Numbered from the stretch's first letter, positions 3,001-63,600 are shown. The stretch: DNA of 64,000 nt from Candidatus Omnitrophota bacterium (GCA_041652815.1 JBAZGN010000002.1:8209-72208), one strand, 5' to 3'. Notes: generated by a model not told the origin, from the letters alone. Translations and numbers: made by a program.

Positions 3001-6000
3001 GCTGACCAATTGCATTGGACAGAAAAATTAACACTTCTTGAGAACTTTGATTTCTATTTCAACAAACCTATGATTCCCAGATATAATTTATTTGTATTTC
3101 TTTTTGCTTTCTTTTTGAATTTTACACCATTCTCCTATTTATCCTTCCCGTTATTATTTGTGGGCTTGCAGTATTTATTTGCCGAAGCAATTACCGCCGG
3201 AGGAATTAGGCTTTTTAGCACAGACAGGCACCCAGTTATGGGTTATTTTAAATATTTAAGCAGATTCTGGAGTTTAGTCTTTACTTTTGCTCCTTTGATA
3301 CCATTACACGACGAGAAGGTTCGTAACGCATTTAAGGGCAAAGCAGGGTTATTTACTTCCGGGGTTAAAGATATTGTTTATTCGATTATTCCTTTTGAAG
3401 AATTATATGAATGCTATAAGACAACAATCAAATGGGGATTGGTGCTTGCTGTAATATTATTGTTTGCGCCAGCACATCCTTACGCTGTTATCGCACAATT
3501 TTTCTTCTATATTTTCCCATTTGCTTTTATCTTTGGCCCATTCTTGAATAATGGTTATTCAAAACCGTGGTGGGCTATTACAACTCTTGCAATGCTTATA
3601 GGTGCCATGTTTGCTCCTTCAATGATTTTAACTGCAGTACTGATTGCGGGCGGTATATTAACTTTTCTTTTAGGGGTTAAAGCAGAAGAACGCTACACAA
3701 AAGGTATTTACCAAGGATTATTAGCTTCACTGTACTATACCTTAGAAGTCTTCCTGAGCTTATTTTTTATTAAGGTTGATTTCTTTGAGTGGTTAGCAGC
3801 TATGCCCGATGTTACTAAACGTAAAGATGGCGAGCCGGTAATAAAGAGTGGTAAACCGGACAATGAGATGCTTAACTTAACTCTTTTCTTTAAAGGAAAA
3901 AACCCCGGTGTTGTTGGTGGCGAGAAAGATGCTGGTAAAGGAAAAATGGTAAAATACTATGATAACCCGGCTACTAATAACAGCAGCCATAACATTTATA
4001 AGGTATTTGGGCAACTGATATTATTGACTGCGACAATAGCCGCATCTTTCGCTGCACTTTATACCGCTATAAAAGTGTTAATGATTAGCGTGGTTACATT
4101 GGCAGTTTTAAGTTTAATTGTTTATCCCGTATTGGTTTATAACGAACGATTTGCACGAAGTATGAAGGATTTCATTAAACCCATTAAAGACGATGATTTG
4201 CCTAAACAGGATGAAGTATTATCTCTTGATTACAAACTTCTCAAAATCTGGCAGTCCTTAATACCAAAAATAAATAAAGTATTTAGTTGGTCTTATCCAT
4301 TGAAAGTTATGGTATTAAGCATTGAATATGGCTTTGTTTCCATGGTTTATTTCCTCTCCATTGCATTATGGCAAAAAAGTAATAACAAAAAAATTACCAA
4401 AACTACTTATCCCGCCACCATGCCTGTTGTTAATATTCCTGATAGAAACGCTACGCAAGAAGAATTACAAATAATTATTAATGCTTTTGGTGGCAGTAAA
4501 GCATTAGCGCACAATAAAATTACTCTTAATACAAATAATACGGTAATTAGCGGTTTATTAGAATCGCCGGCAGAAGTCAGTAATGGAATTTTATTTATAA
4601 ATCCTAATACCTTACGTGGTCCACCGGAGCAGTTAAGAGTTATTTTTGAAGGACATGAATTATTCCATTTACTTAACCCGGATTTTTCAGAGGAAGCTGC
4701 ACGCCAATACACTATTGAGTATTTGTCCGCACGTAATCTTTTAGCGAGACATATTCAATTTCTGCAGAAGAATGATATTGGGCTTGTAGCGAATAGTTTT
4801 TGGATGGAACAATCAAAGATTACAAACGAACCTAAATTATCTACTAGGTTAGAGAATTTCCAGAAAGTTGAGAAAATTGAGAGAATCGCCGAAGTAGTGA
4901 TTTATATTCTAGTGATAGCATTGCTGGCTATATTTACACCTCTAAGAAATCCTGTAAATTTATTTCTCCAAATTATTGGAGTACTAGTAGTAACAAGTTT
5001 TCTTATTCATATTATTGAGAGTAGCATTAAGGAAACAATATTTGGAATTATAGAGATCCCAGCTTCTTATAGGGGAGAAGTTGGTAAAACCTATCGCGGT
5101 TCAACAGCTGAAGAATATGATGACGATGAAGACAACGATTCAGTGGATTATTCTTCAAGTCCAATAGAGTCAAACGAACCGGGCTTCTTTGGCAGGATCT
5201 GGCGGGATATGCGGATAAATTATCATATAGGGCAGTTGAGAAGTGAAAATGAAAAAATTAGACAAGCATCGGCAGATGCCTTGACCAAAATTGGCGAGCC
5301 GGCAGCAGAATTAATTATTAAAGAATTAGATACCCCTATTAATAAATGGTATAAGCCTGCAAGAAATTCCCGAAACACCCCTGTGGCGGAGTTGATAGAA
5401 ATTTTAGGAAGAATGAGAAGTCTTAGAGCTATACCTAAACGGCAATTTCAAACATTAACTAGTTTTGAATTAATTCCCCGCTATTCAACCCAGCTTCGCC
5501 TGCCTTTAACCCGTGGCCCTCCGCAAAATGCGATTACAAATAAAGATTCATCCCCAATATCTACGGTTTCGACTTTTGCTCCAAAAAGCATTAGCAATTT
5601 AATCCGCTACAGTGATTTAGAAGAGGCGTTTACTAACGAGTATGAGTGTGTTCTTGATTTAGAATTCGAGAAGAAAGATGAACGATTCTCAATTTTAGCA
5701 TTACCATTAGCAGTTAAGGTAAAAACCCCTCAAGACTACGATAGAGAAGCAAAAGAATTAGCATTTTCATGGGGCACTTCTGATAACCCGCGACATCAAT
5801 ATTTTGAAGCACTACAGCAAATAAGAGAGAAAGACAGACAGGAAGCAACTAAATACAGAACTGCCCAAAGATTTGCCGAGATACTGAATCAGGCTTTACT
5901 TACCGTTGAAGAAATAATTCATCAGCAAGGCGGAGCAGAATTCATTCGCTATTTCCAAGCTAAGTTAAATTCACCTGACAATAGAGCGCCTCCTGTCCGC

Positions 6001-9000
6001 ATTAGAGTTAATTCCAACTTACCAGTAAATTCAGCAAGATACTACAATAAAACTAAAAACGAAGTAGAAATACTTTTTAATGACAAATTTGCTCTTGAAC
6101 TTATAGGTGCATATGATACTTATAGAGAAGCAGTTATCACCATTTTTGGTGAACGTCTTTTCCATGAGCTCTGCCATACCAATAATGGCGATATAAGAGT
6201 AGCTACGGTTAACGAAGCCCGCCGCATAGAGCGCGACTATCAATTGCATAAATTGATTGTAACGAACAAAAGACAAGAAGACGTTGACCTTTTCTATAGA
6301 GAATACCACCCGTCATGTCGCTCCGGTTATTACTTCAAATTTTTAGAAGAGCTCGAAGGCCTTGATGCGCAGCAAAGGAAAATTGCGATTTTAAACTATC
6401 TTTATGCCAATTATCCCGTAGATACAGCCGCCAACCTTTCTATTATTTTAGGAAGAATAGATCTTTCCAAATATGATACAAAAGCCAAATTTGCCATCTA
6501 TTCTGGCCCTCCGGGAGGCGGCAAGGGAGCAGTATCCGAAGAATTTAATAAACTTTTTGGACGTCATATACAGAAATTTATTCTTTTCCATACCAGAGGA
6601 ATACGGCCGGGAGAACGTCAAGATGAAAACTATCATTTCCGCACGGAAGAACATTTAAGGAAATTAAAACAAGAAGGGAAAATACTCACTACTTTGATTA
6701 ACAACCAATTGCAGGGTTTAGCTGTAGAAAGTTTTACCGATACTTATGCCGATCCAGTAACTAACGAAGAAAGAACAACTGAAATTAATGGTCTCGATTC
6801 TGTTTTTAACGGATCACGAATAGTCATCCTTGAATGTGGGCTTTCCTGGTTTGAAATATTAAAAGAAAAATATCCCGATCTTTATGCAATTTTTATTTCG
6901 CCGTTCAATGATAAATATTTAAGCGAAAAATCACATAATCCTGATGCCGCTTTTGAGGCAATCGTAGGCAAGGAAATTGCTTTAAGAATACATGACCGAG
7001 AATGTAAAAATGCCAAAAAAGCCGCTGCCAAGTTTTCAGAAGAGAAAAAATTCTACATCCCTACTTCACAAGGAGAATATGTCAACCGTATCAACGAGGC
7101 GGTAACACAGGTCAAAAGAAGGCATGAATACAGAGTGAATTTAGTCAATGAATGGGTGCCGGAAGATCGTTATGAAGCAGCAATAGGTATATTAACCGAA
7201 CAATTCGCGCAAGCCATCTTCTCAAACGTGCTTACCGCAATGGAGGTTGAGTTTAATGCTGCTGATTCTGCTGAACAGCTTTCTACACGTTTAGGTACCG
7301 TTGATATAAAAGCCAAAGAAAGCCAGGCAAAATTTGTCATCTACTCCGGACCTCCGGGAGGAGGAAAAGGTGCCGTTTGGGATAAGTTCAAGAAAAGATT
7401 CGGCGAATCCAATAATAGTTACGGTGAAAATTTGCTCAATAAATTCCGTCTTTTTCATACCAGGAGCATACGACCCGGCGAAGTCCAAGATGTTGATTAC
7501 CACTTTAGAGATGCAGCGCATTTAAATAAATTACGACAAGAAGGGAAAATCATTACCGTTTTGATTAATGACCAACTACAAGGTTTGCCTTTGGTTAATT
7601 TCCACGATACCTACAAGTATCCGGATCCGGATGATCCTACGACAATTCATGAGGGCGAGTGCGATGTTGTCGGCCTTGACTCGGTATTCAAAGGTGGGCA
7701 GATAGTTCTCTTGGAAGGAGGCCTAGGCTGGTTTGAACAGTTACAACAGATGTGCGGTAAGGATATTTTTAGTATCTTTATATCACCTTTTAGCGATGGC
7801 TATTTAGAGGCGAAATCCCATGATCCAGAGGCAATGCTTGAAGCGATTGTCGGCAAGGAAATTGCATTACGTATCCATGCCAGGGAAGTAAAAGGCGCCG
7901 CATTACAAAAAGCAAATAATGAAGAAAAATTTCAACAAGGAAAAACAGATGAGATTAAACACTGGTTTCCGACGAAACACGAGGAATTTGTCAACAGGGT
8001 CAATGAGGCCGTTATCCAAATAAGAAGAAGGCATGAATACACAAAGGTATTAACCAATGAATGGGCTAACAGTCAGCAAGAATATCAACGTATCATAAGA
8101 AAGCTTACCGAAGAATTTTCACAAGCTATTTTTGGAAATCTTTATAATAACCTCAACGAAGGTTATGTTAAGGCATTCGGCGGAGTAAGCTCTCCTATTT
8201 CAGAAGAATCTTCTCCAAGCGCAAACTTTATTTCCCCCTTCTCTCCCCATAACATCGCGACTCTCATACGCTATGCAGATTTAGAAAATGGTTTCAATGA
8301 TACATATGAATGCAGTCTTGATTTGGAGAAAAAACCATTGAAGAGATTCAGAGCAATAGGCAATAAAGCTTATGATTTAGCAATGGTTTTAAACGAAGCA
8401 TTAATAGTAGTTGAAGAAATTATCTCAAAAGGCGCCGATACAGAACTTACGCGTTATTTCCAGACCAAGCTTAATATGTATTATAACCGTGGACCCCCTA
8501 TTAAGATAAGGCTCAATTCCAAATTAACAGTTAACGCCGCAAGATATTATAACAGGGTTACTAATACGGTAGAGATTATTTTAAATGAACGTTTTGCCTT
8601 GACTCTACTTGCTGCCCGTACGACTTTCCCAGAAGCTATACCAGTTATCTTTGGTGAACGCCTTTTCCATGAGCTCTGCCACACTAATAACGATGATATT
8701 AGGCTTGCCGTAGTCCATGAAGCTCACCGTATCGAAAGAGATCTTCAACTCCATCAATTAGTTGTCGCCAGCGGAAAACAAGCATTTATAGATGATTACT
8801 ACCAACAATTACATCCTGTATGGCGCTCGGGCTATTACTTTAGGTTTCTTGGTAAACTAGGTAAACTTGAAGATAAAGTTCAACGCGGGAAAGCCATAGA
8901 TGCTTATTTAAAGCGTGAATATCCCGTTATTACAGCTTCTAATCTTTCCATAACTTTAGGAAGGATAGAGCTGGGCCAGCATAACACTTCTGCCAAATTT

Positions 9001-12000
9001 GCCATCTACTCCGGGCCTCCAGGAGGAGGAAAAGGCGCTGTCTGGGAGAGATTCTCCAGTCTATTTAGCCATCAAATCGAGCGTTTTATATTATTCCATA
9101 CCCGTTCAATGCGCAGCGGAGAAGTGCAGGATGAAACTTACCATTATAGAAGCGAGGAGCATTTAAAGGCACTGGAAGCAGACGATAAAATTATAACTAC
9201 AAAAATCAACAACCAATTACAAGGTTTAGCCATAGAGACATTTACAGATACCTATATTGACCCTGAAACAAAAGAAGAAAGAACAACAACGGTAGTCGGT
9301 CTTGATACGGTATTTAACGGAGAGAAGGTAGTTGTTCTTGAATGCGGATTAGCCTGGTTTGAAGTTCTAAGCGGTAAATATCCTGACCTTTATTCTATAT
9401 TTATCTCACCATTTTCCGCTGAATATCTTGAAAAGAGTTCACATGACCCCCAAGCGGCATTTGAAGCAATCATCGGTAAAGAGATTGCTTTGAGAATTCA
9501 TAGCAGAGAATGTAAGAATGCTAAAGCAGCCGCAGACAAATTTAAAACGGATCCCCAAGCAAAACTCTACACCCCCACTCCCCAAGCAGAATATATCGAT
9601 AGAATTAAAGAAGCAGTAGAACAGGTAAGAAGGCGGCATGAATATAAACTTGTTTTAGTCAATGAATGGGTACCGGAAGATCAGTTTGAAGAAGCTATTT
9701 TAAAGCTGACCGAAGAATTTGCCAAAGGTATCTTCTCCAACCTCTTAAGAGCGTTAGAGATGCCTTTTGACGATAATGCTTCAGCAGACCAATTAGCAAT
9801 GATTCTGTCGGCAGCAGACCTTAAAACAAAATCAACTTCTGCCAAATTTGCCATATACTCCGGGCCTCCAGGAGGAGGAAAAGGCGCTGTCTGGGAGAGA
9901 TTTATCGAACATTATAGTAATGTTTATAATATCTATGGGGAGCCATTAATTGCTAGATTTAGGCTTTTCCATACCCGGGCAAAAAGGCCAGGAGAAACAC
10001 AGAATGAACATTATTACTATAGAAACGGTATTCATCTCAACAAGCTAAGAATTGAAGGTAAAATTATCACTACCTTGATTAATAATCAGCTTCAAGGATT
10101 GGCTTTAACCAGCTTCGCCGATACTTATACTGATCCCGAGACCAATCAGCAGGAACAATTTGATGTTGTCGGCCTTGACTCGGTATTCAAAGGTGGGCAG
10201 ATAGTTCTCTTGGAAGGAGGCCTAGGCTGGTTTGAACAGTTACAACAGATGTACGGTAAGGATATTTTTAGTATCTTTATATCACCCTTTAGCGATGGCT
10301 ATATTGACAGGCAGTCCAATAACCCGCAATCAGCCTTCAAAGCCATAGTAGGCAAGGAAATTGCCTTGAGAATCCATGCCCGTGAATGCAAAGATGCCAA
10401 AAAGAGAAAAGAGAATGCTGAAGTAGATAAAGAGCAGGGCAATCGTGAAGCTATAAGACTTTTCTCCCCTACGCCACAGCAGGAATTTATCAACCGGATA
10501 GAAGAAGCAGTAGAGCAAGTCGCAAGAAGAGGAGAATATAGTGATATCTTAGTAAATACTTGGGTGCATAACGAAGAAGAATTCCGTCAAGCAGTAAGGG
10601 AACTTACTGAAACATTATCTGTAAATGTCTTCTCCCATCTTTTTAATGAACTGAGAGAAGGTTATGTCAAGGCATTTGGGGGAGCGAGTTCGGCGGTGGC
10701 AACCGCGCAGCATATTATCGTAAACAGGATACTTTTCCAGAGACGGCACGATAGGGCTGAAGTGCTTGTGCATCAAGGCATAAACCCTTCTACTATAGAA
10801 AATATAGCGGGAGGCGCTATTGATTTATTATCTGAAGACGGTTTTACTAGAGCAGTTTTGACTGCAATGGGTGTTGTTGATTTTGACTCTCTTGATAAAA
10901 ATAACGAAGACATAAGCGCAATCACTATGCTTGAATCGTATCGAGATATAAATGATAGCATCGCGGCTGGCACAGTAAGCCTATTCGCATTCAGGGCAGA
11001 TATGCAGCGAGAAATCATTGATCGCTTGATCAATGATTTCAAAATGGTGGGATATAGTGGCGAATATAATGAAGCATACGTTGATGTGTATGACAACCAT
11101 GCAAGAACAACGGGCGTGGTTATGCCACGTGCGCAAGTTCATATGGATGGAGATTTGCACGCGGATGTATATGTGTTTGTGTTTAATGACGACGGGAATA
11201 TTTTGATGCAGACACGTTCTGCCCAAAAGGAGATTTATCCTTTAAAAAGAGAGGCGTCAGTGAGCGGACATAGAAGAGCTGGAGAAGACGCAAAAACAAC
11301 AGCTGTACGCTTATTAAAAAAAGAAATTGGTTTGGAAGCGCGACTGGACAACCTTGTCCAGCTTGGTACAGAAAACAGGTTAAGACGCACGGAGGATTTT
11401 AACAATAACCTTAAAGAAAGGCTTTTTACAACAGTATTTGCCTATGTTATCTCTATCAATGACACTATTACTTTTAATCCCCAGGAAGTTAAAAGTATTG
11501 AGTTTGTTAACGCGGACAAGGAATTGCGCGAGCTAAAGGCAAACAGCGATAATTACGCAAGCATAAAATACGTTTTGTCTGATAGGGAAGTAATAGATGA
11601 AATAAGAAGAATAGGTTCTGAAATCAGTGAGTATAGAATTTCCGTAGGCCAAAGAAGCAAAGACAATGAAATACTTTTTAGAATAAAAAATGTTTTTTCT
11701 ACAGATAGAATAAAAAGTGCCGCTTTCGTCACACCGGAAGCAATACCTTTTGCCAAAACCGGCGGACTAGGGGATGTCTCCGGTGAACTGCCTCAAGCTG
11801 TAGCAGAGCTTGGCATAGCAACTTATATATTTACTTTAGGTTACAACGCAATCTTTCAGAAGTATGACCTTGTCGACACCGGCATAACAATAGAAGTTGT
11901 TATTGACGGCAAGCAGGTACCGGTAAAAATTTGGACAAAACATGAGCGCAATGTTACTTACTTCTTTTTATCAGCACAAGATTATGCCAAGGTACCTTAT

Positions 12001-13146: not shown

Positions 13147-13163
13147 AAAACAGGCAATATTTC

Positions 13164-54600: not shown

Positions 54601-57600
54601 GAAGAATTCGATAGGCTTTTATCCGAAAGGCCGGTACAGCTGCAGTTACAAGCTGCTTCATTATTCGATGCTCAGGATTTAAAGGTTGAATTGGTTGCAA
54701 ACGCTAATTTCTTTAGAGTGCGGGGAACAAGAAATAGCTTAAGGGTAAGTTTACGTGAATTAGCCGATACAAAAGAAAGAGAGTTAGTGAGGTTAAGCGA
54801 TTTTATCTTTGCTTTTGCCGAGGCACAATTTATTAGAAGCATTTCAGATTATAATAGTTCAGGAGCTTTGGATATCTACGCAAACTACCATTTCAGCCGT
54901 ATTGTTATAGAAAGTATTGCTATTTTGACTTTGCAGGAATCGGCAAGAGCAGAAGAACTCAATAACTATCTGACAGGAAGGCGTGATTACTATACAAGGG
55001 ATTTTGCCCTGCATAGTGATATGAATATTGAAGAGCGCGTGGCAGATCTTTTCGGCCAAGGGCTTAAAGCCAGAATTCTTAAATGGTTTACCAGGGCAAT
55101 ATATTTCGGGTTAACTGATTTAGCAGATGAGATTTATGCTTGTGCCTTAAAGCACGGCGGATTGCAGTTGGCCGCTCTTAGGAAGGTCGGGAATTTTTAT
55201 GTAAATCAAATCAGGAATATTAACACTAAGGATGAGATTTTAGCCAGGCTTAATACCTTTGATTGGGAAAGTATAGCACGTTTGACAAGCGATTATTTAC
55301 GTTGCGGAGTATTACTTCCGGCTAATGTTACCCCCTATGAAAGAGGCTTGGTAATAGATTTGTTAAATCATCATCCGGCAAAATTCAGATTAGATAAATG
55401 GGGACAGGATTCATCTTTGCAACCTTCTAATACTGCTAATAAAGAAATAGCGCTTAGAATACCTGAAAGCCAAGAAGAGGCTTTAGATGGCTTAGTCGAA
55501 AAAGGAATTGTTGTTTCTCAAGATGGACTTTTTGGTTTAGCCCCTGATTGGCTTGATTTTGTAGTGGCCAACAGTCAGATAGAGGCTTCCAGCCCGGCAC
55601 AGTATATTCATTGGAACCGGCAGCCTAAAGTAGAAGAATACCTAAGAAGACTAGGTGTGCGATATGACAACGACGGAGAATTCCCCGAAGCCACCTTCCC
55701 TTATAGCCACAACATTTTTGAAAAATGGAAGTTGTATAACTTACCGGGTAAATCAATATGGTCTGTGTTGTTTATTTGGGGCGGGGTAATATTAGGCGAT
55801 GCAACTCTTTATCTCGGAGACAAGAATTTGTCAATATCCACGTGCGAGCTTAAGCCTTTTTATGGCGGAATAGGAATCAGAACGGAAATGACAGCACGAG
55901 TATATTTACGGGGTATGCAGATTAGCCGGTTGCTTGGATTTCCTGCAATTGAAGAACTGCACAGATATTATACTTCCGCAGTAGATTTATCAGCGATGGA
56001 ACTGGAGCGGCATTTGATAGAAATGCTCAATAAATTCGGATTTAAAAGATGCCGTCATTTTGACTATATTAACCGAATGGGAAGGGGTTGTATGAAAGTT
56101 ACGCCGCAAGAATTTATGTTTAATGTTGCGCGCCGCGGACGTGATTTATTCTATGAATACAAAGCTAAAAAGGCCCAAGCGCAAATCGCTTGGAATGAAT
56201 TTAATTGGCAGAAAGCAGATGAAATTAAGAAGGCAAACGACACAATTGCCCTTAGGCTGATAACCAATCGTCTCGAAAGAAGAGGCTTTAAGCCCAATGA
56301 TGCCAGTATCGAAGAAGCTTTCAATGATTTTACCCCTTTTACCAGCGCAGCCAGCTCACCTATTTATACAGAAATTTTTCTTTTAGAACGATATAAAAAG
56401 ATTGTCGTGGGCACTCAAAACCCCATTCTTATCAACATTGTTGCTATCAATAAAAATGGCAGAGAAGCCGACGTGATTGTTTCAAGGAGCCATGAGAGCG
56501 ATAGGTTAGTTCCTGTTTCTAGATTTAAAGAAACAGTTATTGACCAAACAGAGAAAATTTCCCTGCAATTGATACAGAGCCAAAGACAGCTGTTACCTGT
56601 GCGTCAAGGCTTAACTAGCCGGATGGAAATGAGAAGTGAAAATTTATTACGGGTTATAACGCCTCAGGGGATTGAGGTTAAAGAAGATGACCCTCTTTTG
56701 AAAGAAATTCCAGTAGACGGTGGATTAATTTTAATGCGAAGCAAAGAAGACATTGGAGAAGCAAATATAAAAAGAAGGCAGTTTGCGGTTGGCGGATATA
56801 ATTTTGAAGTCACGGGTATCTGTTCAGAGCCGTATATGCTTTTTGTAAAAGACGGAGAAAGGTTATTAATGTTGCCTAAGGGCGATGTAAGGATAGTTAG
56901 AAAAGGTATTTGGTTTAAGTTTGTCGGTTCAGACAGTGGCCGTCATGAGGATAACCCGCGAATACAAATTTTTGCTCCCGGTATGCCTATCGATAGGCCA
57001 GATATAAAGAGCGGCGCGAAACCCAACCATTCCTCCAGCCCTATTTCGGTGGCAGTCATCGGCGATATCCATTCGAAATTTGGAAACTTAACAAAAATTT
57101 TAGAAGACAAAAATAAAAGAGGTGTCGGGAAAACTATATTTTTAGGCGATTATTTAGATAGAGGAAAAGACAGCCGGGCAACAATGTCTTTGGTAAGGCG
57201 CGAAGCCGATAACGGCGCAGTTATGCTTTGGGGTAATCATGAGTTAATTTCTGTTGAAGCCGCTAAAGGAGACCAGCAATCGTTTACAGATTGGCTTACT
57301 AATGGAGGAATTGCAACTGTAAGGGATGTTACGCAGAAAGATGATTTTACGAACCAATTATCCGATAAGGCAGACAGATATAAAATCTTGCGTGATAGGA
57401 TAAGAAATCCATCCGAATCCGACGAATTTATTGATTTATCTGAAGAGCTAAGGCAGATTCAGGAAGAACTTTTGCAAACTGAGCCATTTTTTATCGAATT
57501 AAATAGTTGGTATATTCAAAACCTGAGGCTTTACCATCATGATGCATTGAGCAATTTCTACATTCATGCAGGCCTACCGCGTTGCCGCTTAGGCCAGCTT

Positions 57601-60600
57601 AGCGTAGGTAATTATAAAGGAAAAGTTGATTTAGAAGCTTTGTCCAAAATGGATGAGGATTTACATAATTTGAAAGCTTTGAATGGTTCGATGGTAAGGG
57701 CTATCGAAGATATCGTGGCAAACAGAGATTGGAAAAATGTTTATACTTTGAGCGAAGAAGAAGAAGAGAATGTTTCCGATAGCCTTTTACATAATTTTAG
57801 TGCAGCAATTATGATTATGGGGCATAACCATGCTCACCCACATCTTTATAGAAGGATAGGCAGAAGAATATTTATTATTAATAATGGTTTGAAAGGCTAT
57901 CTGTTGATATCAGAAGACAGAGGTATTGAGTTAGTTGATCCGGGGAAAGAGGCGCAAGTAATAATGCCGGCAGAGGAATACAGAGAACTTCGTCAACCTC
58001 TCATTGAGGTTTCTTCTCCGGTTGCACAAATTGTTACTGACTTAGCTGGAATTATCAACAATGGAAATACTCGGTTGCAGCAGAGTTTAAAAGAGCGGTT
58101 CAACCTCTTCCGTGGCTGGTGGAGGACCGTTCTCTCTGTTGCAGCCGCTTTACCTATTTATATAAGAAAAGGCGCGTTAAGCAAATTTTTAAAGGAAAAT
58201 TTTGGAACAAGGAGGTTAATATGGTTATCCGTGGCTTTGAAAACCTTACAATTACCAGAATTATCCCCACGAGAAATGGGCTTATTGTTAGGGCAACTTA
58301 TCCGGGATGGGCTTCGCGCTTTACCTTTCTTGTCCAGCATAGCGGAAATATTAAGGGCATCAGCGGGTTTAGATGGCAAAATGTCAGTACCGCAGCCACA
58401 AGAATTATTGCGGCAAAAATTTTCTCCAGTATCAGCAAACAGAGCCGTTGGATTTCTTAGAGGATATGTGGACGAAAGAGCTTCTTCTGCTGGAGGCAAT
58501 CATAGTGAGGACATAAACTTGTTCGGGTTAACGCGTTATCAAAAAGTGTTGCTTGAACATTTAGGTATTTCTTTTAATCGGTTTCCGCCGTATGGTTTAT
58601 GGGGCGAAGAATTAAGTATGACAGATTTAGGTATGCAGTTCCGCGACCGTAGGAATGAGCTTCGTGCCGCAATGCGAATTGTATGGCGCAATAAAATGTT
58701 TGCTCGGCTTGTAAGCTATACTAAGCGTCATTATGGAGAAATTAATATTGTAAATGACGTTAATGAATGCTACGTTGAAGCTTTTGTGAGGCTTTCAAGA
58801 AATGCTACTGCACGGCGAGCAGGAGCACAAGCATTTACCTATCCACAGGCAAGAAAAACTATCATTGAGATATGCCGTCAATTACAAAGCGAGGATAGCC
58901 AAGGCAGTTCTCCTCTTGTCTCCGATGACAATGATCAAGAATTAATTAAAACCTCTTCACCTACTGCAATCGCAAGGTCTTCCGCAATTTTCGAGACAAA
59001 AATTACTAACCCCGTGGAAGATATAACAATGCTATTAGGCCGATATAATACATGCTTGGGTGATGGTAGGGGTATTCTAAGCGATTATGGCAAAAGATTA
59101 TTTGCAACAAAGAAATTTAGTTCTATAGATATAGAAAGTTTGCAAGGAGAAACTTTTACGCGCGCAATTGAAAGGCTGGTCTTACCGCCTGAGCATGGTG
59201 GAATAAATAGGGACGCAAATTTATTCATATCCCCTACAGAATATGTTGCAAGGTCAAATTGTAAATTCATAGGCCGAGGTTTGCAAATTTCACACGACTG
59301 TAATAATCATTGTCTATTCTGTATGTCAGGAGGCAAAAATCAAGAGCAATCGTTATTTTATCCTATAGCAATAGAAAGTTTTTTAAGTTTTGCTCAAGAA
59401 GGAGGACGCAAGGCCATACGTTTTACGGTTGTGCCATTCTACTCAAGAACCGACGGTGACGACCTCTCTACTAAAGATGACATTTGTGGTGCAGATATAT
59501 CTGACATTATTTTATTCAATCAATGGAGTTTTAATACATTTTGGCCAGAGGAAAAAGGCATGGCAGATGTACGTAGTGCCGGTTATTCTCCTTTCCATAG
59601 AACTGCATTTTGGTCAAAGAGGGCAGTAAAAAGACTACATGATGCCCAGATTGATGGAAGGAGATTTCGGTTCCTAATCTCATTTCATTTATTCAGGCCG
59701 GAAATTTTATGCGCCGTTCTGGGCATGAATAAAGAACGATTACGTTTTATAATCAGCAAATTTAGCCAAATGTACAAGGATGTTATATTGTGCTGGGGTA
59801 AAGACAATCAAGTATTTGTTTTGCCCCGATGGTTATCACCGGAAGATATTTCTGATCGAAGTTTCCCTACAACGCTTAAAGTGATTGATGGGCTGCAAAG
59901 GAGAATGCTGGAAGATTTATTGGCCGATCACGAAATAAAAAGAAGGATTGTGATAGTGGATGGTGATATTTCATGGAAATACCCATATGCGCGTAGTGTG
60001 TTAGAAAGAATCGTTAAACAAGAAAAGGCGCAATCGGATATCTTTAGCAGGGCTAAAGATATGCTTGTAAAAGAAAGTAACGGCGCCGTTTCTTCGCCTT
60101 TGGCAGGTAGAGAAAGATTTACGACCGTAATTTCCGATATCGGCGGCGTGTTAGGCGGATTCGATGGCGATTCTTTTGTAAAACAGGTTTTACCTTATAG
60201 CCGAATGCCGGCGAAAGACATTGTGGAAGCTCTGCGGACATCTAAGGCAAGAGAGCTGTCCGCCTTAGGAATTATTGATGATAGGCAATTTATCAGAATG
60301 ATTTCTGAAGAATTACAGTTAAAAGGCATAAACTATGGCGATTTTTATAGGATTTATAACTCCGGTTTTACAGTAAATGCAGAAATGGTTGGCTTATTGA
60401 ATTTATTGATGGCACAAGAACTAAAAGTGGCAATTCTTTCTAACATAGGCACTATGCACTACCAAGCTGTAAAAGAATTTATGCCGCAACACGGATTGGA
60501 TATCGAGCGCCTTGATGGGTTTTTCGCATCCTGCGAATTAAGGATGAAAAAGCCAGATCCCGCGATATACAAATATGCTTTGGGTAATTTAGGAGTTAAT

Positions 60601-63600
60601 CCGCAGGAAACCATATTTATCGACGACATGCAGGAAAATGTCGAGGCAGCGCGGGAATTAGGCATAATCGCTATTGGGTTTACGCGTATAGAGCTTCTTG
60701 GACAGACATTAATTGAATTGGGTATTTTAAATAGGAGCTCTTCGCCTTCCAGAGCTAATAATAATGGCAGCTTGGGTATTATGTCGACTTCTGTCGGGAA
60801 ATGGATAGGTTATCATAAAAACAGCCCGCCATTTAACACAGCTGAAGAAACCATTTCTTCTTCTCCGGCGAAAAAAGACAGCAAACATTCTTTTTCTTTG
60901 GCTTTTTCACGCATCCGCAACAGGTTTAGCCGTTTGCCCAGGAACAAACAGCTAAACATATTGGTAGATGCTATTTCTACCGCAGCTTACGTATTTATCA
61001 GCGTAATTTCATTAGGCTTCTTATTCCTTACCACCGGCGTAGCTAATATCATTTTCGGCGTTACCGGAATTCTTTTTGTAGCCCTTAAAGCTACCGCAAC
61101 CTTTATTAAGAAAATCATCAATAGCGGTTTGATTGCCGTTTTAATTTCTGTCGCGCCCTACTTTAAATATTTTGTTATTATAATTATATTTTTTGCCAGA
61201 ACTGTAAACGCTTACGTTAAAAGAATAAATGTGCCGGTTAATCCACGGGCAAATTCACCCGCACTGAAAAATTGCCAAAGTTTAGGCCCTGCATCTTCCC
61301 CAATCGGAAACATCGGCCAAGCCCTAAGAGATGAATTAGTGGTTAACCCGTCTTTACTTTCCTTAAAAGATACCCCTCATTTATTTCTTCAACAGGCTTT
61401 GCAAGCTCAAAATGCCGGCGCAGGGATGATTCATTTTGACCTAATGGATGGGATTTTTGTTGCCGCTAACAACTTAAATATTTTTAGCCCCGAGAAGGTG
61501 TATGAACTGACACAGCGGTTAAGCATTCCTTTGGATGTGCACCTTATGGTTCGTAAGTCAAAACAAGAGCTTGAGTTACTTATCAGCCGCTATCAAGATG
61601 CCGGAGCAGGTATTATTACTGTCCATAGAGAAGTTTTTGAGGGAGAAGACGAGATGATTGATATATTAGAGCATATTCGTAAACAAAATGTAAAAGCCGG
61701 AGTTGCCCTTAATCCTGACCGGCAAGTTTGCGATATCGCTGATGCTTTAGCCTATGCCGATATGGTTCTTATTATGTCAGTGTATCCGGGAAAAAGCGGA
61801 CAGGAATTTATTGTAAATGTTTTAAGCAAAGCAGACATTCTACGTAAACATTACGGTTTCAAAGGCGCGATAGAAATTGACGGCGGAATTAAAACGCCGC
61901 AGGCATTTTTCGTTTCTTTATGGGGAGGAGTTAATATTTTTGTTTCCGGAACAGGGGTATTTAATCAAGAGCCCATTCAAGCCAATATTGCTTTATTAAA
62001 ACAGGCTTTCCGCGCCGGCAAAGCAATGCGGTTAGCTAAGGTGGGAAAATCTATAGAGGCCGGAATTGTATCGTCATCTCTTGCTTTCGATGGGAGCAGC
62101 CGTAATGCTTTGGTTTTCGGGCGCAGGCCTGGAGAAAAGTTGATTGTTTTCGGAAGTAAACTCACAACTATTACTATGGTTGGCTATGGATATAGTTTAG
62201 AGGGCAGAGAGCCGGCAAGCGTTGTTATAGTTTCCCGCGATGGAGAAGATGACAGGTTGGTTGGAGTATCTCAACAAAAACCTGTTGTGGATATTGGCGA
62301 GGATATGTCTGTTTTTGTGCCTCAAAAATATCCGCAAAGGCGTATAGGAATTTTGGTTTTACCTTCAGTTAACGTACAGAGAGCAGAGCAATTACCAGAA
62401 GAAAGCCCTTCTCTTAGCGGGATTGTGGTTACTCGTTATATGAATTATTGGGAGAGAAGAGGTTTTGATGTCGGAGAAGTCGCATTTAAACTTGACGGCA
62501 GGGAAACCATAAGAAGGCCTTATCTTGCTTATCTTACGATGATAGAGCCTAAGAAGCGAAGAGAAATTATCCTCATCGAAAATTTTCAGCGTTATGCAGG
62601 AAATAATATTTGGCTTACATTTTTACCTGTTGAAATTGCGCCCGGCCAAAGTAAAAAAACAAAATTTCATATTATAGCGCCGAACAAGTTTGTTGCGAGA
62701 TGGGATTTTAAAGGGCATAGCAGTAAGGTAGGCAATGGAGGAATTCATAGAAATTTTGGCGCAGGTTCTTCGCCGGTTAAAGATGCGCTTAGAACTACCA
62801 GCCCCACTCGTGGTCCGCCGGAATTTAGCTACAAGCTACGAGCTATCCTTCGAGCATACTCAGGACAAGTGAGCTATGAGTTTAATTCTTCTTCGCCAGT
62901 TCAATTAATTAAAGAAAAGCATCAAGCCCAATTTAAAGAAGAGGCTGTAAATTGGCTTATGGAATGGTTTAGGACGGAAGGCGGCGTCGCTGATGTTACA
63001 CGTAATGGCGCTGAAGAAGTATATGACAAGTTTTATATCTGCCCGGCAGGAACTGTAGGCTGGCTTACTAAGCCGTTTGAGGATTTAAGTCCGGAAGAAG
63101 AAGTTGTATTCCTACGAGCGATAATGAGAAGATATGCTCAATACGCCAAGCTTGAGCCTCAAGGAGGAGTATTGAGGTATTTACCCGGAAGCTTAGAGAC
63201 TTATGAAATTGATTTAACTAAAGCAGGCGAAAGCGGGAAATTAATTCTTAAGTTAAGGCCGACCACTAACGCTCTCCCCTTTGCGGTAATGTATGAGTTT
63301 GGCTATAAAGGCGATGAGTATATCATTACTCTTCACCGCGCGCCTTACGGCGTAGAGCGCCATGTGGTTGTAGGCAAAAAATTCTCCCAGAGTACTCCCC
63401 AGGAACTATCGTTGGAACGGACAGAGCTTATTCTACGCCTAACACGGATGTTTGGAAGTGGGTATGAAACCACCTTTAACCATGTGGGATGTGGAGTACC
63501 AGAATTCCATGCCCACTTTTTTAAATTGATAACGCCGTTATGGACAACTTCGACCCATATTGGTATATCAAGCAAATATCTTAAAGGAATTCAAAGATTA

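Follow-up and report, generated by a model that had tools for sequence, protein, structure and literature searches.

A giant gene of an Omnitrophota bacterium combining a membrane region, an array of metabolic enzyme modules and a recurrent SSP junction motif

Results and discussion

A stop-free frame spans the window

The window, i.e. the whole stretch of 64,000 nucleotides analysed here, lies inside a single giant gene, at least 21,333 codons long, from an uncultured Candidatus Omnitrophota bacterium. On the + strand, frame 1 is free of stops throughout and reaches both window ends, whereas the other two + frames contain 1,515 and 2,009 stops; the - strand has no open stretch longer than 171 codons. 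The original prediction of a single frame at 5542-62000 was thus right as to the frame but not as to its extent, as the open frame is longer at both sides and the claimed start at 5542 is an SSP junction (see below) at aa 1850 rather than a gene start. Every domain lies in this one frame, with no stop between them, and frame errors therefore need not be assumed. The ORF also contains two copies of an exact direct repeat of 2,494 bp. It is laid out as a polytopic membrane region with a family-wide core, followed by a domain termed HExxH-A and then by the enzyme array.

1..63999, + strand: single stop-free reading frame, 21,333 codons, cut by both window ends (frame scan)
700..1320, + strand: cluster of TM-like hydrophobic segments, aa 234-440 (Kyte-Doolittle scan)
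2308..3768, + strand: conserved membrane-core block, aa 770-1256, common to many giant relatives (alignment A2)
3436..4146, + strand: second cluster of TM-like segments, aa 1146-1382 (Kyte-Doolittle scan)
4393..4845, + strand: HExxH-A, aa 1465-1615, putative compact zincin/minigluzincin-like metallopeptidase fold (sequence/fold comparison)
4873..5031, + strand: two TM-like segments, aa 1625-1677, the last ahead of the array (Kyte-Doolittle scan)
5155..63978, + strand: 58 S-S-P junction motifs, codons 5155-5163 through 63970-63978 (tripeptide count)
5848..6426, + strand: HExxH-B copy 1, aa 1950-2142, putative zincin-like fold, ERLFHELCH (sequence/fold comparison)
6424..8154, + strand: guanylate-kinase-like P-loop units 1 and 2, aa 2142-2414 and 2423-2718 (profile and self-similarity)
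8209..10702, + strand: direct repeat of 2,494 bp, copy 1, with HExxH-B copy 2 (aa 2780-2978) and guanylate-kinase-like units 3 (aa 2978-3252) and 4 (aa 3261-3551) (self-comparison)
11155..11544, + strand: NUDIX domain 1, aa 3719-3848 (profile search; 43 and 40 bits for the two NUDIX domains)
11725..13134, + strand: glycogen/starch synthase 1, GT5+GT1, aa 3909-4378 (TIGR02095 315 bits, cut-off 328)
13165..15658, + strand: direct repeat, copy 2, with HExxH-B copy 3 (aa 4432-4630) and guanylate-kinase-like units 5 (aa 4630-4904) and 6 (aa 4913-5203) (self-comparison)
15907..16290, + strand: NUDIX domain 2, aa 5303-5430 (profile search)
16939..18441, + strand: N-terminal half of a PEP-synthase-like enzyme, ATP-grasp PPDK_N (247 bits) and swivel-His PEP-utilizers (67 bits), aa 5647-6147 (profile search)
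19756..20397, + strand: HIGH-motif nucleotidyltransferase-like module, GTMNPLTYGH ... ISSTIVRK, borderline (motif and profile)
20929..21138, + strand: Pol-beta/MntA-like nucleotidyltransferase, weak, aa 6977-7046 (profile search)
26095..26547, + strand: HATPase_c (GHKL) ATPase-like, aa 8699-8849 (profile, slightly under the Pfam cut-off)
26668..29235, + strand: PGM/PMM-like module, ~aa 8890-9745 (full-length homology to free-standing proteins of ~820 aa)
31309..32700, + strand: PFK-like module with a ~170-aa insertion, aa 10437-10900 (profile search, 76 bits)
33532..34521, + strand: FkbH/HAD-IIIC domain, aa 11178-11507 (TIGR01686 305 bits, cut-off 147)
38935..39015, + strand: Tat-signal-like peptide, SRRAFL and a hydrophobic stretch, 5 aa past a junction (motif only)
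42112..42936, + strand: ROK-family sugar-kinase segments, aa 14038-14312 (profile search, 62 bits)
43150..44085, + strand: PfkB-family carbohydrate kinase, aa 14384-14695 (profile search, 64 bits)
44911..45375, + strand: chymotrypsin-fold Ser-protease-like domain, TNTH / DIALL / GDSGSP (motifs; under the Pfam cut-off)
49354..50805, + strand: pyruvate kinase, aa 16452-16935, catalytic motifs intact (PK 318 and PK_C 66 bits; NCBIfam TIGR01064 466 bits, equivalog cut-off 306)
50839..52245, + strand: glycogen/starch synthase 2, divergent, aa 16947-17415 (profile search)
53938..54351, + strand: guanylate-kinase-like unit 7, aa 17980-18117 (profile search)
57046..57900, + strand: calcineurin-like metallophosphatase, GDIH / GDYLDRG / GNHE / GHNH (profile, 45 bits, and motifs)
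59299..59322, + strand: CxxxCxxC motif with a 17-bit MoaA-like match only (motif)
60124..60678, + strand: HAD-like hydrolase, aa 20042-20226, motif I DIGGV lacking the second Asp (profile search, 47 bits)
60952..61200, + strand: further cluster of TM-like segments, aa 20318-20400 (Kyte-Doolittle scan)
61339..62007, + strand: ribulose-phosphate 3-epimerase (Rpe), aa 20447-20669, metal and catalytic motifs intact (profile search, 138 bits)

The membrane region and the protease-like domains

As the TM segments come from a hydropathy scan only and the N-terminus of the gene lies outside the window, the topology is at the level of a prediction. The membrane-core block matched no known family, but is shared with 80 relatives, many of them 2,000-7,500 aa long, and in alignment A2 displays several invariant residues, including D80, D132, E172-D173, R197 and R199-E200. 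In most of ten metagenome loci the ORF is open throughout the 20 kb retrieved.

Five protease-like domains are present, namely four zincin-like HExxH domains (one of type A and three of type B) and one Ser-protease-like domain. The HExxH domains gave no significant sequence match to Pfam and PDB families. They are putative zincin-like metallopeptidases; the HExxH (invariant in 26 copies of domain A) and a conserved downstream His/Glu are also found in the minigluzincins and the M48/M56 families (projannalysin, proabylysin, selecase, BlaR1, BepA); unlike these, they are embedded repeatedly within giant ORFs, every ~670-870 aa in the relatives. The predicted trypsin-like protease has the motifs of the H/D/S triad, but Trypsin_2 scores 22 bits against a cut-off of 27.6. 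Only one homolog of this domain was detectable, and the domain's insignificant similarity to a 3C-like protease (E=0.15) is the sole sequence resemblance to viral polyproteins.

Composition of the enzyme array

The array of ~18,600 aa is essentially devoid of TM segments in the hydropathy scan and comprises ~45 segments of at least 90 aa delimited by SSP junctions, with about half of it showing no recognisable family. Profile searches of the translated frame matched the families named in the original prediction, several of them only below cut-off, and all motifs quoted there are present, each exactly once in the frame. Matches at or above the curated cut-offs were obtained for the PFK-like, pyruvate kinase, ROK, PfkB, ribulose-phosphate 3-epimerase, NUDIX and metallophosphatase domains, and for both domains of the PEP-utilizing enzyme, whose C-terminal PEP/pyruvate domain was unmatched in the profile search. 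Glyco_transf_5 likewise recovered two glycogen synthases (174 and 87 bits), although the KTGGLGDV signature ascribed to both occurs only in the first, the second reading KIGGLAEV. Both anticipated HAD-type domains were recovered, and the seven guanylate kinases are accounted for by the Guanylate_kin profile at four sites and by internal similarity at three more.

Other assignments are less well supported. The supposed NadD-like domain is a borderline HIGH-motif nucleotidyltransferase, with matches to PPAT (E=8.5e-4) and NadD (E=1.8e-3) below cut-off; the GHKL ATPase is matched by HATPase_c at 25.4-25.8 bits against a cut-off of 26.4; and the radical-SAM-like segment has the CxxxCxxC motif and the MoaA match (E~2e-3) but no match to the Radical_SAM Pfam model. 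The Tat-like peptide was not recognised by curated profile models.

Catalytic signatures are intact in pyruvate kinase, PFK, Rpe, the metallophosphatase and the triad of the Ser-protease, and by these signatures the enzymes look functional. Of the equivalog cut-offs, that for pyruvate kinase is exceeded while the first glycogen synthase and Rpe fall slightly below theirs. Most enzyme modules score under family-specific cut-offs, which leaves their substrates uncertain. The metallophosphatase, of the PPP type, gave sub-threshold NCBIfam matches to a Ser/Thr protein phosphatase and to ApaH (E ~5e-8 to 8e-8) that do not come near the cut-offs.

A conserved peptide motif marks module starts

In the array, a short peptide motif that is under selection, [A/G][S/A/T]-S-S-P-[L/I/V/A/T], marks where modules start. 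SSP is the top-ranking tripeptide (58 observed against 4.0 expected, z=27), is encoded by many codon combinations and never falls inside a Pfam envelope (0/58, expected 10.8). It usually lies a few residues ahead of the first residue of an enzyme: in nine enzymes it is located between 5 residues inside and 38 upstream of the point to which the start of the profile projects, and a free-standing 820-aa homolog (P0019) starts ~10 residues past the corresponding junction. The 15 aa upstream are linker-like in composition (z=4.8), while the 15 aa downstream are not.

In relatives from the same clade SSP is also enriched (17 observed against 1.0 expected) and is retained at, or within 3 residues of, five of six alignable junction positions, with flanks of only 2/19 to 14/30 identity. 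Free-standing homologs contain none (5.9 expected). Among 77 other giant relatives its enrichment is just 1.7-fold, and the ten metagenome loci have 0-1 copies; being lineage-specific, the motif cannot serve as a mechanism common to every giant. One relative of 52-60% identity, P0055, is without SSP at two homologous positions, and some multi-domain stretches of 1,250-1,650 aa also have none.

Relationship to published giant proteins

The closest relatives (P0001, P0062, P0058, P0065, P0066, P0067, P0073, P0107) all bear the Candidatus Omnitrophota name. P0001 is 77-78% identical over ~890 aa and has the PGM-like module between the same junctions. P0062 is a 4,709-aa ORF that takes up the whole of its 14,127-bp contig; its membrane core, guanylate-kinase-like units, NUDIX and glycogen synthase come in the order of the window, with 45-56% identity across long collinear HSPs. 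That many enzyme families are fused in one polypeptide is hence borne out by separate contigs from other samples encoding parts of the same fusions. The label 'metabolon-like' in the original prediction is a guess at function.

The further claim that no such ORF had been described does not hold. Genes of this giant kind have been described since 2022-23, and the present one falls within the class published as 'Archaeovorin' / 'multi-enzyme metabolic', whose architecture it matches. West-Roberts et al. 2023 (bioRxiv 10.1101/2023.11.21.568195) defined the Omnitrophota 'Archaeovorins', among them a protein of 39,678 aa from Ca. Velamenicoccus archaeovorus LiM, with GT5/glycogen-synthase, GT1, PPDK_N, NUDIX, HAD_2, HATPase_c, Radical_SAM and glycolytic domains. 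Like the window, these are single ORFs of tens of kilobases from Omnitrophota with many TM segments, GT5/glycogen-synthase, GT1, PPDK_N, NUDIX, HAD, HATPase_c, sugar-phosphate enzyme and peptidase domains, divergent domains, large unannotated stretches and suspected cleavage. Unlike them, the window has no match to HEAT, TPR, SecA_DEAD, C39, S8, methyltransferase or glycoside hydrolase domains, which may lie outside it; conversely, its pyruvate kinase, PFK, Rpe, PfkB and guanylate-kinase units are unnamed in the main text of that paper.

A 2026 preprint (10.64898/2026.06.07.730766) recognises a 'multi-enzyme metabolic cluster' class of up to 147,155 aa with a co-occurring module of starch synthase, GT1, PGM/PMM and ROK. 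Its membrane-anchored members resemble the window in being tiled by many distinct Pfam families, none dominant, including PF08323, PF00534, PGM/PMM and ROK with a kinase/phosphotransferase set, NUDIX and HAD. TM density as given in the preprint is roughly constant, reaching one helix per ~370 residues in the most extreme case, against which the ~18,600 aa without TM segments are unusual. The preprint is a Pfam-level catalogue whose main text does not cover linkers, junctions, cleavage or metallopeptidases, while the Archaeovorin paper (10.1101/2023.11.21.568195) mentions neither a junction motif nor zinc metallopeptidase domains in Omnitrophota giants and states their cleavage points to be unknown. 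The SSP motif and the embedded protease domains thus go beyond the main text of these papers; together they make the cleavage question directly testable for such giants, and may show where they are cut.

Potential functional mechanisms

Kinases requiring ATP and PEP point to a cytoplasmic array; the 2026 preprint likewise predicts a bulk-cytoplasmic topology for giants with TM helices and no signal peptide (10.64898/2026.06.07.730766). We lean, with modest confidence, towards an Omnitrophota giant gene with an enzyme array on the cytoplasmic face whose SSP junctions are probably cut by its own proteases. Such a gene would make a co-translated, fixed-stoichiometry set of ATP- and sugar-phosphate-using enzymes and deliver it to the cell membrane on the cytoplasmic side, with the SSP junctions as defined boundaries at which the embedded protease domains probably cut the chain; the array would then behave as a bacterial polyprotein. 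Pyruvate kinase and PFK are normally homo-oligomers, and a single tethered copy hence cannot form the active assembly, which release would permit.

SSP could equally be a hinge or modification site, and the zincin-like domains could act on prey proteins instead of the giant itself. Many endopeptidases disfavour a Pro that immediately follows the Ser pair, and Pro-containing motifs are typical linker elements. A possible, though distinctly less favoured, explanation is an unprocessed scaffold: a membrane-tethered string of enzymes that stays intact, with SSP merely ending a linker or acting as a hinge that keeps neighbouring folds apart, or serving as a phosphorylation or glycosylation site, and with the protease-like domains acting on other substrates. 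The linker-like upstream flank fits this, as do the peptides of the V. archaeovorus giant protein detected by proteomics without fragments being reported, and the sub-threshold phosphatase and ApaH matches leave room for phospho-regulation. However, a generic linker needs neither an exact tripeptide kept at homologous positions amid diverging flanks nor five protease-like domains in cis, and tethered single copies of pyruvate kinase and PFK would require clustering of many giants.

It is unlikely that the enzyme region, with its modules released or not, is instead exported to the cell surface or into prey in the manner of MARTX toxins and there drains or rewires the prey's sugar-phosphate and nucleotide pools. 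Omnitrophota including V. archaeovorus live as predatory epibionts, with their giant protein 3-fold up in attached cells; most domains are extracellular in the predictions of West-Roberts et al., who also find secretion/pilus loci beside giant genes; and one junction is followed by the Tat-like peptide. Nevertheless, the curated models do not recognise this peptide, profile searches of the window found no signal peptide, no secretion domain (SecA_DEAD, C39) and neither RTX repeats nor a dockerin, ATP-dependent kinases need a cytoplasm to work, no mechanism is known that would carry a hydrophilic array of 18,600 aa through a membrane, and West-Roberts et al. themselves doubt the extracellular calls for glycolytic domains. 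MARTX toxins do establish that a multi-effector chain with a built-in protease processing the inter-domain regions exists (PMC6315884), which the window may parallel. Yet it is no member of that group: no RTX repeats and no cysteine protease domain were found in it, its candidate proteases are zincin-like and Ser-type, it carries housekeeping-type metabolic enzymes rather than toxins, and its ORF is more than 4 times longer than a MARTX toxin, for which the maximum is 5,208 aa (PMC5218395).

An artefact, in which separate genes were joined by assembly or frame errors or by chimeric misassembly, is essentially refuted by the stop-free frame common to all domains and by independent contigs from other samples (P0062, P0001) with the same fusions and no stops: the exact repeat could cause misassembly and the related locus L082 shows error-prone assemblies distorting such genes, but there errors split a giant ORF and did not create one, and frame errors cannot delete every stop between genes.

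If the processed array that we favour is correct, it may work like the viral polyproteins, such as those of picornaviruses and potyviruses, where a single product yields proteins in fixed stoichiometry, with junction motifs before the mature proteins and embedded proteases of the chymotrypsin fold or other types. Short conserved junction motifs and proteases embedded in the chain would be common to both; in contrast, the window belongs to a cellular gene, is ~ten times longer, and its cleavage is what we infer. AROM, CAD and the fatty-acid/polyketide megasynthases of eukaryotes also unite several enzymes of related metabolism in one unprocessed chain, but cover 3-8 consecutive steps of one pathway in a few thousand residues, whereas the window, in which no pathway is complete, combines a membrane anchor and embedded proteases with dozens of modules and with units that are duplicated.

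Reading frame and extent

Six-frame translation of the window revealed that frame 1 of the + strand, whose codons provide the amino acid numbering used here, is open from base 1 to base 63,999 (21,333 codons). No other frame stays open for more than 171 codons; stops number 1,515 and 2,009 in the two remaining + frames, and the sequence is free of Ns. No complete ORF of at least 300 aa was listed within the window, because the only long ORF runs past both of its ends. The original prediction had placed a single giant frame at 5542-62000; the frame is indeed single, its proposed start coincides with an SSP junction (the tripeptide S-S-P between modules of the ORF) at aa 1850, and each of the motifs quoted for it occurs exactly once. 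The ORF, being stop-free over the whole window, is thus real and exceeds the predicted extent; an artefact as its explanation is extremely improbable. Neither strand showed an Rfam match indicative of embedded RNAs or introns. There are no flanking genes in the window, and the loci fetched for its relatives are likewise occupied by the ORF itself. A metagenome scan with an alignment of the conserved membrane core recovered ten loci, most of them open across the entire 20 kb fetched, with >3,333 codons between the 5' edge and the core; hence, the full ORF is probably much longer than its visible part. A comparable scan with the N-terminal 400 aa gave no match.

Features of the ORF discussed in the text (window coordinates)
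2308-3768, + strand: membrane core (aa 770-1256)
4393-4845, + strand: HExxH-A cassette
4620-4670, + strand: ubiquitin-resembling segment of HExxH-A (aa ~1540-1556)
8209-10702 and 13165-15658, + strand: exact 2,494-bp direct repeat
16912-21450, + strand: PpsA-N and nucleotidyltransferase modules
26641-29244, + strand: PGM-like module
29465-29644 and 35351-35530, + strand: 180-nt direct repeat (aa 9819-9881, 11781-11843)
38935-39015, + strand: Tat-like peptide (aa 12979-13005)
42112-42936, + strand: ROK match (aa 14038-14312)
44278-44900, + strand: internal repeats of the Ser-protease-like module (aa 14760-14960)
60091-60150, + strand: motif I region of the second HAD domain (aa 20031-20050)

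Relatives and phyletic placement

An exhaustive HMMER search with aa 1001-1849 as query recovered 80 relatives, many of 2,000-7,500 aa, which have two blocks in common with the window, namely the membrane core and an HExxH block. The closest are fragments assigned by NCBI to Ca. Omnitrophota/Omnitrophica (P0001, P0058, P0062, P0065, P0066, P0073 and P0107), while P0067 is from Ca. Aceula lacicola of the phylum Omnitrophota. P0001 is 77-78% identical over ~890 aa and its ORF fills an entire 5,030-bp contig; P0062 (4,709 aa, occupying a 14,127-bp contig) is collinear with aa 26 to ~4400 of the window at 45-56% identity. By these relatives, the sequence comparisons indicate that the ORF belongs to Omnitrophota. 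Two proteins that share HExxH-A or core blocks with the window, P0061 and P0139, are labelled Njordarchaeales (an archaeal MAG) and Elusimicrobia; these labels reflect either misbinning or a distribution beyond Omnitrophota. Against genome representatives, the pyruvate kinase module retrieved, among the matches listed, only free-standing pyruvate kinases of ~40% identity.

A related locus on a 444-kb metagenome contig (L082; ENA ERZ1286166, contig_3842, 1-21794) possesses the same kinds of modules in another order, and is annotated as ~10 separate same-strand genes. We considered whether it might represent an unfused operon state; this was ruled out, as homology to single window modules runs across the 'gene' boundaries with a change of frame, implying a giant ORF split into 'genes' by frameshifts. 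The frameshift context is identical in both copies of a repeated unit of this locus. The public names of several relatives derive from one domain, e.g. 'glycogen/starch synthase' for P0062, '(d)CMP kinase' for P0073 (5,751 aa) and 'phosphoglycerate kinase' for P0107 (7,327 aa), and such naming can distort metabolic reconstructions of these genomes.

Enzyme domains of the array

Pieces of the frame cut at SSP sites were searched against Pfam with a threshold of E<=1e-3, and a second round used shifted cuts and E<=0.1; selected modules were also scanned against NCBIfam and PDB sequences. This search, which the original prediction had itself proposed, recovered 14 non-overlapping Pfam domain types at or above the gathering score, in addition to an FkbH domain detected via NCBIfam. 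The predicted fusion of many enzyme families in one polypeptide is thus real and its domains are profile-supported. Only ~19% of the residues fall within Pfam envelopes, and several stretches of ~900 aa have no family match. The highest copy number of any domain type is seven, reached by guanylate-kinase-like (GK-like) units, of which internal BLAST finds six, of ~280 aa each, as three tandem pairs, and one more at aa 17980, in agreement with the number predicted.

The pyruvate kinase (PK and PK_C) is the sole module that passes an NCBIfam equivalog cut-off (TIGR01064, 466 bits versus 306; PRK05826, 453 versus 432). It carries the catalytic and metal-binding signatures NFSH, DLQGPKIR, AKIE, ARGDLAVE and ATQMLDS. 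By standard motif definitions, the catalytic signatures are intact in this module, in PFK, in Rpe, in the metallophosphatase and in the triad of the Ser-protease-like domain. Also at or above Pfam cut-offs are PPDK_N with PEP-utilizers, two copies of Glyco_transf_5 with GT1, Ribul_P_3_epim, PFK, ROK, PfkB, two NUDIX domains, Metallophos and Guanylate_kin, such that all of these predicted families were recovered by profile. In NCBIfam, the first and second glycogen synthases score 315 (cut-off 328) and 184, and the epimerase 159 (cut-off 165). The PEP synthase match covers model positions 4-473 of 798, and hence the PEP/pyruvate domain is missing; in PFK the N-terminal two thirds of the profile match and are followed by an insertion of ~170 aa. 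The PGM/PMM-like module (aa 8881-9851), which is otherwise unannotated, shares homology over the full length with free-standing proteins of ~820 aa; these carry PF02878, and the window itself shows weak PF02878/PF02879 matches.

Two HAD-type domains are likewise present at or above cut-offs, an FkbH/HAD-IIIC (305 versus a cut-off of 147) and one HAD. The latter, the second along the chain, may not be a phosphatase, because its motif I (SDIGGV) retains the nucleophilic Asp but has Gly in place of the general acid at Asp+2. The remaining predicted families were recovered in part. The GHKL ATPase corresponds to an HATPase_c match slightly under the cut-off (~25.5 versus 26.4 bits), the trypsin-like domain has the triad motifs with Trypsin_2 at 22 versus 27.6 bits, and the NadD-like domain is a HIGH-motif nucleotidyltransferase of borderline significance (PPAT, E=8.5e-4). 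The radical-SAM-like region has the CxxxCxxC motif and a 17-bit MoaA match, without a match to Radical_SAM itself. The ROK match is out of order, with profile positions 208-289 lying N-terminal to 39-134 and the GVDLGGTNIRAG motif between them; the region thus comprises either two partial ROK domains or one permuted domain. Deep inside the ORF, a 394-aa module with no family match is headed by a Tat-like peptide (SRRAFL, a hydrophobic stretch and then SAA) that begins five residues past the junction at aa 12976. A Tat signal at this point was rejected, being a by-eye fit to the consensus that neither NCBIfam nor Pfam Tat models detected.

A lineage-specific junction motif

SSP is by far the most enriched tripeptide of the frame (58 seen versus 4.0 expected, z=27); it is encoded by many codon combinations and occurs in the context [A/G][S/A/T]-SSP-[L/I/V/A/T]. 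None of the 58 copies lies inside a Pfam envelope (10.8 expected). In PPDK_N, PFK, PfkB, PK, the second glycogen synthase, the seventh GK-like unit, Metallophos, HAD and Rpe, the tripeptide is situated, relative to where the profile is projected to begin, between 5 residues inside and 38 residues upstream, and a free-standing PGM-like protein (P0019) starts ~10 residues past the corresponding junction. The 15 residues upstream are linker-like (small/polar z=+4.8, hydrophobic z=-4.5), those downstream ordinary. In pairwise alignments with relatives of the window's own clade, five of the six junctions that could be aligned have SSP in place or no more than three residues away, the exception being the second of a tandem pair, with flanks of which only 2/19 to 14/30 residues are identical. 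The more distant fragment P0055 has it at neither of two homologous positions. The window is enriched 14-fold in SSP, and P0001, P0058 and P0062 combined 17-fold, versus only 1.7-fold for 77 other giant relatives; free-standing PGM-like enzymes have no copy (5.9 expected). A universal junction of Omnitrophota giants is rejected by this 1.7-fold value and by the 0-1 copies in the ten metagenome loci. Thus, enrichment, placement, conservation and clade restriction together indicate that SSP is a peptide-level, lineage-specific marker of module starts, and the alignments argue firmly that the motif is under selection. The main texts of West-Roberts et al. 2023 and of the 2026 preprint discussed below mention no linker, junction or motif of this kind.

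Protease-like domains

The window encodes five protease-like domains, four zincin-like and one Ser-protease-like with triad motifs. The former are of two kinds, HExxH-A (one copy) and HExxH-B (three copies), whose folds are predicted by modelling to be zincin-like. HExxH-A may belong with the minigluzincins and M48-M56 zinc metallopeptidases, in which HExxH is joined by a third ligand further downstream on a zincin fold. A common origin of HExxH-A and HExxH-B was rejected, since profile-profile comparison found no likeness outside the motif. In P0061, P0064 and P0081, copies of the HExxH-A cassette follow one another every ~670-870 aa, approximately once per module; the cassette is present as a single copy in the window, whose clade has dense SSP instead. 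This distribution suggests that HExxH-A cassettes and SSP are two alternative junction systems. The segment 'GPPEQLRVIFEGHEL' of HExxH-A resembles 'IPPDQQRLIFAGKQL' of ubiquitin and the parkin Ubl (PDB profile matches, E~0.05), a likeness that is probably due to chance, as the fold search gives a zincin. The Ser-protease-like domain has one homolog only and no significant match in PDB; its module begins with about four internal repeats of ~40 aa with A[R/G]KKDA. The main texts of West-Roberts et al. 2023 and the 2026 preprint discuss C39 and S8 peptidases, and are without zinc metallopeptidases in Omnitrophota giants.

Membrane segments and the conserved core

A hydropathy scan, which is not a topology predictor, located TM-like clusters at aa 234-440, 1146-1382, 1625-1677 and 20318-20400, with a single marginal hydrophobic segment (aa 11836-11856) in the ~18,600 aa between the last two. 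The enzyme array is therefore a single extended hydrophilic region between membrane segments, and the ORF combines a membrane anchor and a long enzyme array. Dozens of giant relatives retain the membrane core, in which ~30 residues are invariant (among them D80, D132, E172-D173 and R199-E200 of its alignment, A2), and which may represent the unit that defines this giant-protein family. Neither Pfam nor PDB sequences match it; a GT2-like identity, guessed from ED...QNRF-type motifs, found no support in Pfam or PDB profile searches.

Comparison with described giant proteins

The original prediction knew of no ORF of this architecture. This part of it does not hold: such genes are defined by West-Roberts et al. 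2023 and by a 2026 preprint, and giant multi-enzyme ORFs are already a recognised, poorly understood hallmark of Omnitrophota, so that the mosaic as such is no novelty. Members of the phylum commonly possess giant ORFs, and a 39,678-aa protein of V. archaeovorus is upregulated 3-fold in attached cells (PMC10066038). The 'Archaeovorins' combine GT5, GT1, PPDK_N, NUDIX, HAD_2, HATPase_c, Radical_SAM and glycolytic domains with many TM helices (West-Roberts et al. 2023, 10.1101/2023.11.21.568195). They form a set of genes >90 kb, equivalent to proteins of 30,000 aa or more; the window shows at least 21,333 codons with both ends cut. The ORF resembles them in its Omnitrophota relatives and, as judged from the hydropathy scan only, in its several TM-like clusters. 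From the Archaeovorin domain set (glycosyl transferases, NUDIX, peptidases, methyltransferases/SAM enzymes and glycosyl hydrolases, with no dockerin), the window, which is part of the ORF, contains two GT5+GT1 pairs, two NUDIX and protease-like domains; dockerin, methyltransferase and glycoside hydrolase have no match in it, and radical SAM is at the level of a motif. The divergent SecA DEAD-like domain and the N-terminal C39/S8 peptidase of Archaeovorins are located near their termini, with a secretion/pilus locus upstream and PilZ genes downstream (West-Roberts et al. 2023); neither domain has a Pfam match in the window's 21,333 aa, and the termini, where the full gene may have them, lie outside it. 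The 'multi-enzyme metabolic cluster' class reaches 147,155 aa, with a sugar module of starch synthase, GT1, PGM/PMM and ROK (2026 preprint, 10.64898/2026.06.07.730766). The ORF is similar to this class in that many Pfam families tile the chain, none dominant by copy number, and in having PF08323 twice, PF00534 twice and ROK above cut-offs along with the PGM/PMM-like module.

Potential functional mechanism

The main open question regarding such giants is whether they exist as one chain of tens of thousands of residues or as cut pieces. That the ORF encodes an Omnitrophota giant multi-enzyme protein is highly probable on sequence grounds. The array is likely to lie on the cytoplasmic side, because its kinases need ATP and PEP and because a bulk-cytoplasmic topology is predicted for giants that possess TM helices and lack a signal peptide (2026 preprint, 10.64898/2026.06.07.730766). 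There it would provide enzymes of sugar-phosphate, glycogen and nucleotide metabolism, localised to the membrane and at fixed stoichiometry. The putative proteases of the ORF might then cut the chain at or near SSP, analogous to MARTX effector release or viral polyprotein maturation. The resemblance to MARTX toxins is functional only, and no Pfam match to RTX-type repeats or to an InsP6-activated cysteine protease domain was found anywhere in the frame. This processing step we regard as conceivable while leaning somewhat against it; for the combined statement of identity and processing we lean slightly in favor. More tentatively still, [A/G][S/A/T]-S-S-P-[L/I/V/A/T] could be a cleavage code and the >64-kb gene a true bacterial polyprotein in this Omnitrophota lineage. 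The zincin-like and/or Ser-protease domains would then cut ~50 defined sites to yield free enzymes at fixed stoichiometry, and the HExxH-A cassette, recurring once per module, would take this role in cis in other lineages. If true, this would be the first cellular polyprotein system of such scale and would answer the question left open by the giant-gene papers.

Several points speak against processing, namely the lineage-specificity of the motif, the absence of SSP from some multi-domain stretches, and the Pro beside the Ser pair, which is awkward for many proteases. An alternative is an unprocessed tethered scaffold in which SSP serves as a hinge, which we consider rather doubtful. The HExxH domains may, again in opposition to processing, target prey proteins. 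A further alternative, an exported effector array, is unlikely. With regard to cleavage of such giants, specific, testable predictions follow from the junction motif and the zincin-like cassettes: junctions at the native N-termini of modules, along with five protease-like domains, specify positions and residues accessible to proteomics and mutagenesis. These also provide rational units for structure prediction and annotation of giants.

Repeats and composition

The exact 2,494-bp direct repeat doubles a super-module of HExxH-B and two GK-like units, a third copy of which is ~65% identical at the protein level. Its left edge falls exactly at TCT-TCT-CCA, the codons of S-S-P, and the flanks on both sides are unrelated; the repeat reflects a very recent duplication of modules at a junction, or else an assembly artefact. 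Among modules, GC3 varies between 0.27 and 0.455 (mean 0.356), somewhat above sampling noise, with 0.455 in the PGM-like module and ~0.27 in the PpsA-N and nucleotidyltransferase modules. This spread hints at modules of different age or origin; a foreign origin deduced from composition was rejected, since the spread exceeds noise yet is not decisive. The 180-nt direct repeat is 96% identical between its copies and spans an SSP junction ('RETDISIREYVT.VWKEA-SSP-ASQRLAPFF').
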